Made by a program: the position numbers and the translations under genes. From positions 1 to 11,341 of IMG/VR virus record IMGVR_UViG_2537561932_000025: DNA of 11,341 nucleotides. One strand, 5' to 3'. Each line of letters opens with the position of its first letter. The first letter of the stretch is position 1. The notes under the pieces are model-generated. The model ran no database searches. It was not told the origin of the DNA and saw only the letters and a program-made list of their open reading frames with translations. The DNA comes from a virus. Its lineage: Duplodnaviria > Heunggongvirae > Uroviricota > Caudoviricetes. This document shows positions 5,999-7,269 of this stretch, piece after piece.

Positions 5999-6313
5999 AT
6001 GAAAAAGACTCCATGGGAGAAATGGGAAGTCGATTTCTTGCGCGAAGTAGCGGCGACAATGCCAGTTGAAGTTATCGCTGAAAAACTGGAAAGGACTGAA
6101 AAAGCAGTAATGGCGAAAGCAACAAGGATTGGCGCTGACATTGTTAGTCGACTTCGTGGAAGACGCTGGACAAGAGCCGAAGTATCACTTTTCGGTAAGT
6201 TCTCCGCAGAAGAAATAGCAATTGCAACCTGCCGCTCAATTTATTCAGTAAGGGCTATGCGATACAAGCTAAAAAAACTCGATGAAGAAAGAGCGGGCAT
6301 ACGAATAAATTAA
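5999..6313 (+). CDS. Hypothetical 104-aa protein with an internal duplicated motif (paralog of the 6998 ORF)
   Basis: Contains two repeats of a W-x-x-x-E/D-x-x-L ... AEEIAI ... helix-like motif and shares this architecture with the ORF at 6998. Confidence 0.6.
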
Positions 6314-6329
6314 CAAAGAGGAATTTACC

Positions 6330-6494
6330 ATGAGAGGGCTTGCATACAATCCCGGCATTCTTCCGGCAGAAATGATTATTCGCCAACGCGTAAAGCCAAT
6401 GCCATCGAGAGAGGAATTGCTTAAGAGAAATTCTTTTCCATCAGTGAATCAAAACAAATATCTGAATGCGATGTGGCGGAGTGGGAAGAAATGA
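6330..6494 (+). CDS. Hypothetical 54-aa protein
   Basis: Below the track cutoff. Strong Shine-Dalgarno (aagagga). Its stop overlaps the start of the next ORF (ATGA at 6491-6494), suggesting translational coupling. Confidence 0.45.
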
Positions 6495-6997
6495 AACAAA
6501 TGTCACTAATTGAGATGGATGGATTTCTGAAAGGTAAATGCATCCCACGAGATTTAAAGGTTAACGAAACAAACGCTGAATATCTTGTGCGTAAATTTGC
6601 TGAAGCGGAGGCCAAGATTTCGGCTCTGTCCGAAGACCAACAGAGAGCGATTGAGTCAATTAAGCAGGCTGATTCGGTTGTTAAGTTGGCACACGAGAAG
6701 TTTTCAGCGCTGGCGGCGGAGAATGCGGTAATGCTCGAAACTATTGAAGCCGTTCGCAGTGTTGCGGATAACTCCAGTGGAATTGCCGGATGGCATTTGA
6801 ATGGCGATATCGCCACATGGGAAGAGATTCTTCCTGAAATTAACGATATCGAAACCCCAGCCACCGATGCTTTCCTGGCTGAAGTACGGGCGCAGGGGGT
6901 GGATACTTTCGGTGATTATTTAAACGGTCTTTTGTGGGATGACAAGGATATTAAAATAGTTCGTGAATTCGCCATACAGCTTCGCAAAGGATGGTAA
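6491..6997 (+). CDS. Hypothetical 168-aa acidic protein
   Basis: Same strand as the operon. ATG at 6491 with ggag 9 nt upstream; the track's GTG at 6473 is an upstream extension. The long opposite-strand ORF 6421..6864 overlaps it and is judged spurious. Confidence 0.6.
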
Positions 6998-7269
6998 ATG
7001 TATGAACATTCAACTGATACAACTAACACGTTTCCTCGTAACGGTTTGAAGTGGTCCGCACGAGATCTGGCGTTATTAAAAATTAATGCAGGAAAGATCA
7101 GTGCGGACGAAATAGCTATTACCTTCGCCGGGACGTTGAAGCAGTGCACATTAAAGCGTCACGTCTCGGTATATCACTGATAACCAATAAATGTAAACGT
7201 GGTCATGCGCGAGTTTACCAAAAAGGTAGATGGCGCTGTCCTGAGTGTAGAAAATTAAAAGGGTATTGA
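6998..7269 (+). pseudogene. Frameshifted paralog of the 5999..6313 protein with a C-terminal CxxxH...CxxC zinc-ribbon-like motif
   Basis: The first reading frame (6998-7180) gives ...LKWSARDLALLKINAGKISADEIAITFAG, then drifts to a stop. The continuation of the paralog alignment, RDVEAVHIKASRLGISLITNKCKRGHARVYQKGRWRCPECRKLKGY, is in the -1 frame from about 7129 to the stop at 7267-7269. This indicates an indel or a recoding site near 7126-7132. Confidence 0.5.

Follow-up and report, generated by a model that had tools for sequence, protein, structure and literature searches.

A one-base deletion breaks a small predicted DNA-binding protein gene in the early-left operon of an Escherichia coli prophage

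We analysed an 11,341-nt stretch of viral DNA (the window) and conclude with considerable confidence that one gene in it, here called ORF B, is a pseudogene: it once encoded a predicted DNA-binding protein of about 90 aa from a phage early region and was broken by the deletion of one base. The 104-aa and 60-aa reading frames (5999–6313 and 6998–7180) that the original prediction had singled out as a related pair, here ORFs A and B, are both present in the sequence. The frame break in B is a genuine, recent and inherited frameshift mutation, and the relationship between A and B is an old one at the level of a single domain.

The window differs from the genome of E. coli 503440 (NZ_CP025881) at 3 of 11,341 bases and represents the early-left (pL) operon of a lambdoid, P22-like E. 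coli prophage inserted beside the csc sucrose genes. Its genes are ordered cII, cro, cI, N, DUF7446, ..., RecT, Gp157-like, ORF A, DUF2737 and YfdS-like, followed by the unannotated interval 6998–7269, DUF7446, Ea22-DUF551, ..., TorI-like Xis and cscB. From this gene order, the region around A and B is the equivalent of the non-essential exo–xis accessory region of lambda. At its left end, the window cuts into an IS2 transposase gene that adjoins a truncated replication-protein gene (window 1–560), and the stretch from the TorI-like excisionase gene to cscB (9365–10094) has no annotated integrase; for both reasons the prophage appears degraded or defective. The 193-aa ORF at 7507–8088 combines Ead/Ea22-like and DUF551 domains, and in TW10573 an IS100 (IS21-family) element is inserted in this gene. 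The window also contains a second divergent pair, the DUF7446-family ORFs at 3590–3832, just 3′ of N, and at 7272–7520, just 3′ of the broken gene, which share 30% identity over 64 aa (E = 1e-5 in pairwise comparison).

Table 1 Coordinates of ORFs A and B and of adjoining features in the window
Feature	Position	Strand	Description
ORF A	5999–6313	+	104 aa, WP_000753555.1; intact; conserved in temperate phages
ORF A repeats	residues roughly 4–52 and 54–97		two tandem three-helix HTH units
ORF B as read from its ATG	6998–7180	+	60 aa
ORF B, native 5′ part	6998–7116	+	codons 1–39 and bases 1 and 2 of codon 40 in the 90-aa ancestral gene; predicted from the model of the intact protein to encode HTH helix 1 with half of helix 2
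1-bp deletion	7116–7117	+	G missing between C7116 and T7117; ancestral GCG TAT, here GC-TAT
Out-of-frame tail of truncated B	7117–7180	+	20 aberrant residues ITFAGTLKQCTLKRHVSVYH; TGA stop at 7178–7180
Stranded 3′ part of B	7117–7269	+	ancestral codons 41–90 and stop (7267–7269), in the −1 frame; predicted to encode the remainder of helix 2, helix 3 (residues 47–57) and the zinc ribbon
Zinc ribbon of B	C66 (7192–7194), H70, C81, C84 (7246–7248)		ligands from the family alignment
DUF7446 gene 3′ of B	7272–7520	+	

The start codon of B directly abuts an upstream stop (TAAATG), and the two frames of the gene are jointly open from about 7086 to 7180. The −1 frame, open from about 7086, has the sequence ...YYLRRDVEAVHIKASRLGISLITNKCKRGHARVYQKGRWRCPECRKLKGY* and, as had been noticed from its translation, continues B to an end at 7269. 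The break itself lies elsewhere than was supposed. It had been placed at 7126–7132, in or near a ggg run (7130–7132), and is instead the one-base deletion between C7116 and T7117, 14 nt upstream of that run, where there is no homopolymer. The deletion puts the codons 3′ of codon 40 into the −1 frame; codon 40 itself (7115–7117) still encodes Ala, so that 40 native residues are followed by 20 aberrant ones. The protein junction proposed earlier, ...ITFAG-RDVEAV..., gives way to the ancestral junction ...ADEIA-YYLRRDVEAV..., and the last I of the 'SADEIAI' match on which the proposed likeness to A partly drew is an out-of-frame residue.

Three complete E. coli genomes have the B stretch. Those of strains 503440 and 503829 read GC-TAT like the window, and that of TW10573 reads GCGTAT; the extra G is the single difference between TW10573 and the window at the B locus, and with it the locus is a single 90-aa ORF. 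When phage genomes were searched with the repaired protein (tblastn), full-length single-piece matches of 84–96% identity were found in virulent siphophages (Nonanavirus/Sashavirus), namely KarinMuster_Bas82, vB_EcoS_AVIO78A, PDP46, PJ16 and the CSP1 group. In the three records inspected (Bas82, AVIO78A and PDP46), the match is annotated as a single CDS of 87–112 aa. A five-way DNA alignment has the G in every sequence but the window (TW10573, Bas82, AVIO78A and PDP46 all read GCGTAT), and two IMG/VR contigs also carry intact B with the G. In TW10573, the three virulent phages and the two IMG/VR contigs, intact B is one ORF each, of 86–112 aa, and homologs, some of them 97–99.6% identical in DNA, are single-frame ORFs. 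A downstream frame that forms an independent gene with its own start, the arrangement that would have undone the original prediction, was found in none of the homologs, each of which is a single ORF.

At 9 of the 12 codons that vary among the intact alleles, the differences are synonymous in the single ancestral frame (at 3 of 5 in the part 3′ of the indel). Together, this excess of synonymous codons and the intact relatives indicate that the intact ORF is the ancestral, selected state and that the deletion in the window is derived. Because the missing base is all that separates the deleted allele from that of TW10573, the deletion is recent. An inactivating indel of recent origin had been among the explanations first offered, and it is supported by intact alleles that are otherwise identical or 94–97% identical in DNA and by deleted alleles that are all alike. 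B is rare, since relatives of the single B protein numbered zero among 185,579 species-representative genomes and were found at only two IMG/VR loci. In the RefSeq/PGAP annotation, the 6998–7269 interval is blank in all three complete genomes (7000–7272 in locus L001, 7000–7271 in L002); the intact 90-aa ORF of TW10573 is absent from RefSeq and present in the GenBank record as WNT71841.1.

The exact 60-aa product (P0004, identical to EMW23898.1 of E. coli 2848050) is found on at least 24 contigs. The contigs are drawn from draft genomes at NCBI, an ENA assembly of a gut metagenome and Logan assemblies of sequencing runs, short-read assemblies included, and represent at least 10 samples. All 11 fetched copies of the deleted allele are 100% identical over 272 bp, and the allele occurs in two prophage backbones, the RecT/Gp157/ORF-A type seen in the window and an ERF/Abc2 type. 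A sequencing or assembly error in a truly intact gene, suggested earlier with the ggg run as its site, would account for the one base that separates the window from the intact TW10573 allele, and in an interval left unannotated in RefSeq it would never have been flagged. Such an error is nonetheless highly improbable, because the missing G lies within GCGTAT, away from any homopolymer, and an identical non-homopolymer indel recurs in many independent assemblies, across three data sources and both backbones.

Programmed −1 ribosomal frameshifting, also raised at the outset as recoding, would yield a full-length helix–turn–helix (HTH) and zinc-ribbon protein from the window as it stands. The downstream frame is indeed the −1 frame, and the zone open in both frames (from about 7086 to 7180) is where the shift would have to fall. 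That zone, scanned over 7080–7180, contains neither a slippery heptamer X_XXY_YYZ nor a run of four or more identical bases; all homologs are single-frame, so the two-frame layout is not conserved; and a shift anywhere but exactly at codon 40 would garble helix 2. With no slip site and no two-frame homolog, we regard programmed recoding as extremely unlikely and the break as an inherited mutation.

What the deletion destroyed can be judged from the intact protein (P0001). A phmmer search of 1.84 billion representatives returned 238 proteins at E ≤ 1e-3. Residues ~14–65 of B match a unit of about 50 aa that is typically present in 3–7 copies in proteins of 200–800 aa; one of these multi-repeat relatives also has a LAGLIDADG nuclease domain. 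The complete architecture of HTH and zinc ribbon recurs in proteins of 74–94 aa and at the C terminus of Klebsiella Jedunavirus proteins of ~205–215 aa. In the family alignment, which reaches down to 31% identity, W19, L27, S60, C66, C81 and C84 are invariant and H70 is nearly so, P0169 having a C-x2-C pattern in its place, a swap that is the behaviour expected of a four-ligand zinc site. The B family has four conserved Cys/His ligands in two pairs, and the C-x3-H...C-x2-C motif pointed out in the original prediction is real, with ligands that are invariant or nearly so in distant homologs.

An AlphaFold model of intact B (pLDDT 80.3) has helices at residues 21–30, 36–43 and 47–57, followed by a β-hairpin (73–80) and a short helix; in the ribbon region, the hairpin (73–80) and the helix (82–87) have pLDDT values of 76–84, and no Pfam zinc-ribbon model matches above threshold. 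The best PDB match of the AlphaFold models of both A and B is the GcrA DNA-binding domain, and the best BFVD fold match of B is a protein of Klebsiella phage IME346. The match of B to phrog_323 (2.2e-6) spans residues 17–66, the HTH only. No family in Pfam, NCBIfam or PADLOC matched A or B above threshold, and a PDB sequence search with the family profiles returned only weak SANT, GcrA and NarL matches. From the fold and the motif, we infer that intact B joins a three-helix HTH like that of the GcrA DNA-binding domain or Myb (residues ~17–58) to a C-x3-H...C-x2-C ribbon (66–84), and that it would bind DNA and zinc. The small HTH–zinc-ribbon family, for which Pfam and NCBIfam have no model, is of an uncharacterised but unexceptional protein type.

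In this prophage lineage, one G was lost from codon 40. Translation from the ATG at 6998 would then give 40 native and 20 aberrant residues up to the stop at 7180, and the third helix (the usual position for DNA recognition) would be lost together with the whole zinc ribbon. Since both of these parts are missing from it, the truncated product is very probably inactive. One observation goes against calling B a pseudogene: among E. coli prophage contigs the deleted allele is commoner than the intact one (at least 24 versus 4). This excess could mean that loss is tolerated or favoured, or that the truncated product is useful; equally, it could reflect the sampling of related enterotoxigenic E. 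coli (ETEC) isolates. As all deleted copies are identical, they carry no decay signal in the form of secondary mutations that would prove relaxed selection.

Two readings would give the deleted allele a value. The gene could be split yet useful, with the 60-aa fragment, a 41-aa ribbon peptide or both retained, for instance through loss of toxicity or a dominant-negative effect. The commonness of the deleted allele on prophage contigs and its presence in two mosaic backbones speak for this, as does the GTG at 7144, which starts a 41-aa ORF holding the whole zinc ribbon. Against it, that GTG is an internal Val codon in every homolog, the exact 41-aa product is not called among about 15 billion proteins, and no promoter-like site lies near it; a promoter and terminator scan of 5400–7700 found 1 promoter-like site (4.2 in shuffled sequence) and 2 terminator-like sites (2.0 in shuffled sequence), none of them near B. 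Helix 3 is missing from the N-terminal fragment, and the identity of all copies means that persistence may amount to recent ancestry. We consider a useful split gene unlikely. In the second reading, inactivation of B was favoured in lysogens, intact B being a host-directed, GcrA-like factor that binds DNA (or sigma-70) by means of its HTH and zinc ribbon and does harm when its expression leaks from the prophage, and the null allele spread over more than one backbone. Outside the prophages, intact B is almost confined to virulent Nonanavirus/Sashavirus phages. The evidence for favoured inactivation is the allele counts, and we think it improbable to a similar degree; if true, it would make the small HTH–zinc-ribbon family a class of early phage regulators of host takeover that has yet to be described. 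The simple pseudogene remains our preferred explanation.

ORF A is intact and, as part of the RecT/Gp157 module, is present in about 1,700 of the 5,426 complete E. coli genomes. It matches phrog_323 (2.8e-20) over residues 2–99, and RefSeq phage records give it the PHROG 323 label 'transcriptional regulator, D5-like'. Its two repeats do not align with each other by BLASTP and are not significantly similar in a shuffle test; their relatedness rests on the match of both to B and on the predicted fold.

The similarity between A and B, as first proposed, is above chance. By BLASTP, intact B matches repeat 1 of A at E = 3e-4 and repeat 2 at E = 2e-3, and 0 of 2,000 shuffles reached the Smith–Waterman score of B against either repeat. 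Alignment of the two families with hhalign gave a probability of 96.8% and E = 2.9e-10 (A 4–52 against B 17–65; about 29% identity over 49 aa). A and B both match phrog_323 and phrog_11013, and their homologous part is one predicted three-helix DNA-binding domain of about 50 aa. A chance likeness of short helix-rich sequences would suit the marginal pairwise BLASTP values and the lack of a common Pfam family above threshold; set against the hhalign and shuffle results, the common PHROG matches and the GcrA DNA-binding domain as best PDB match of both models, it is exceedingly improbable. The homology is best described as real, old and confined to the domain. The common architecture described earlier stands to the extent that the domain of B matches each repeat of A separately; the consensus drawn from it had spliced the first half of A repeat 2 onto the second half of repeat 1.

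Recent tandem paralogy by local duplication, in contrast, was ruled out. Identity is low, two unrelated genes lie between A and B, the two belong to different mobile modules and their distributions differ: about 1,700 complete E. coli genomes have A and three have B, and the ERF-type prophages L006 and L008 have B without A. Of the 'paralogous pair' of a 'duplicated family', domain-level homology is thus what survives, and A, an intact gene with two repeats and an inheritance of its own, belongs to the same broad superfamily of HTH repeats as B and is no recent duplicate of it.

The DUF7446 gene 3′ of B travels with it. The stretch covering both (7022–7495) is 94% identical to virulent phage Bas82, and the cassette DNA is 94–97% identical to the virulent Nonanavirus/Sashavirus siphophages Bas82, AVIO78A and PDP46 (L003–L005), which indicates that temperate prophages and lytic phages have exchanged genes recently. 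Prophages and virulent phages differ in the 5′ ends and start codons of the cassette. A mosaic junction lies at about 6318, right after the stop of ORF A; downstream of it, the ERF/Abc2-module prophages L006 and L008 are 99% identical to the window, and they lack RecT, Gp157 and ORF A. The DUF2737 ORF of these prophages is called only in L008.

The value of these results lies mainly in annotation. In this window, the interval 6998–7269 calls for annotation as a frameshifted pseudogene; GcrA/Myb-like HTH is a suitable label for A and B alike, with a C-terminal zinc ribbon added for B, and B with DUF7446 is an example of a near-identical accessory cassette common to temperate prophages and virulent siphophages. 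These results leave the current understanding of phage biology unchanged. We take B to be an ordinary pseudogene, carried by an E. coli prophage in decay.

Among known proteins, the closest solved relative of the B HTH is the DNA-binding domain of Caulobacter crescentus GcrA (PDB 5YIU; the N-terminal part of PF07750), and the GcrA-type N-terminal three-helix DNA-binding domain is recognizable in B. GcrA has a C-terminal sigma-70-binding domain, in place of which B has the zinc ribbon and A a second HTH repeat. PF07750 matched neither A nor B nor any of 12 B-family members at E ≤ 1; its threshold is reached only by multi-repeat relatives such as P0070 (30.7 bits versus 26.9). Membership of the GcrA family was rejected for failure at the Pfam gathering threshold and for the missing C-terminal sigma-70 domain, and the likeness carries no implication that A or B recognizes methylated GANTC. 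A literature search for GcrA-like coliphage proteins found nothing relevant. Eukaryotic Myb repeats typically have three regularly spaced tryptophans, of which the B family conserves only the first (W19), and neither A nor B matches a Pfam Myb/SANT model.

Closer at hand, A and B match the profile of PHROG 323 ('transcriptional regulator, D5-like', a functional label that is an annotation) and multi-repeat phage HTH proteins; relative to these, B is a single repeat with a zinc ribbon that falls outside the profile. The full architecture of B is found, at 31–54% identity, in the 74–94-aa proteins and in Klebsiella Jedunavirus proteins (for example YP_010684904.1, 'SANT/Myb-like DNA-binding domain-containing protein'), which differ from B in an extra N-terminal TrmB/MarR-like winged helix. 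In Klebsiella phage KB2, gp74 (L016 1608–2246; 212 aa) fuses the winged helix to the HTH and zinc-ribbon module. Jedunavirus proteins of this kind are annotated inconsistently, as endonuclease, SANT/Myb-like or DNA/RNA-binding.

Two publications place exo–xis genes among the earliest expressed and credit them with effects on lysogenization and prophage induction (PMC8614690, PMC3824215), and a third describes these genes as not essential for propagation under laboratory conditions (PMC6213356). By analogy, intact A and B would bind DNA and, like other exo–xis genes, serve as early regulators or accessory factors that the phage can do without; the most likely role for both is that of small DNA-binding proteins that modulate early development or host transcription. 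One product of that region, Ea8.5 (PDB 2M7A), is described in PMC8614690, citing Kwan et al. 2013, as having a 'hybrid homeodomain/zinc-finger fold'. Homology between B and Ea8.5 was rejected (hhalign probability 0.3%; no PDB sequence match to 2M7A at E ≤ 10). Like B, Ea8.5 is small (about 93 aa), has a zinc site in addition to a helical HTH-like unit and comes from the non-essential exo–xis region of the pL operon, and it is, without profile homology, a striking architectural and positional analogue of B.
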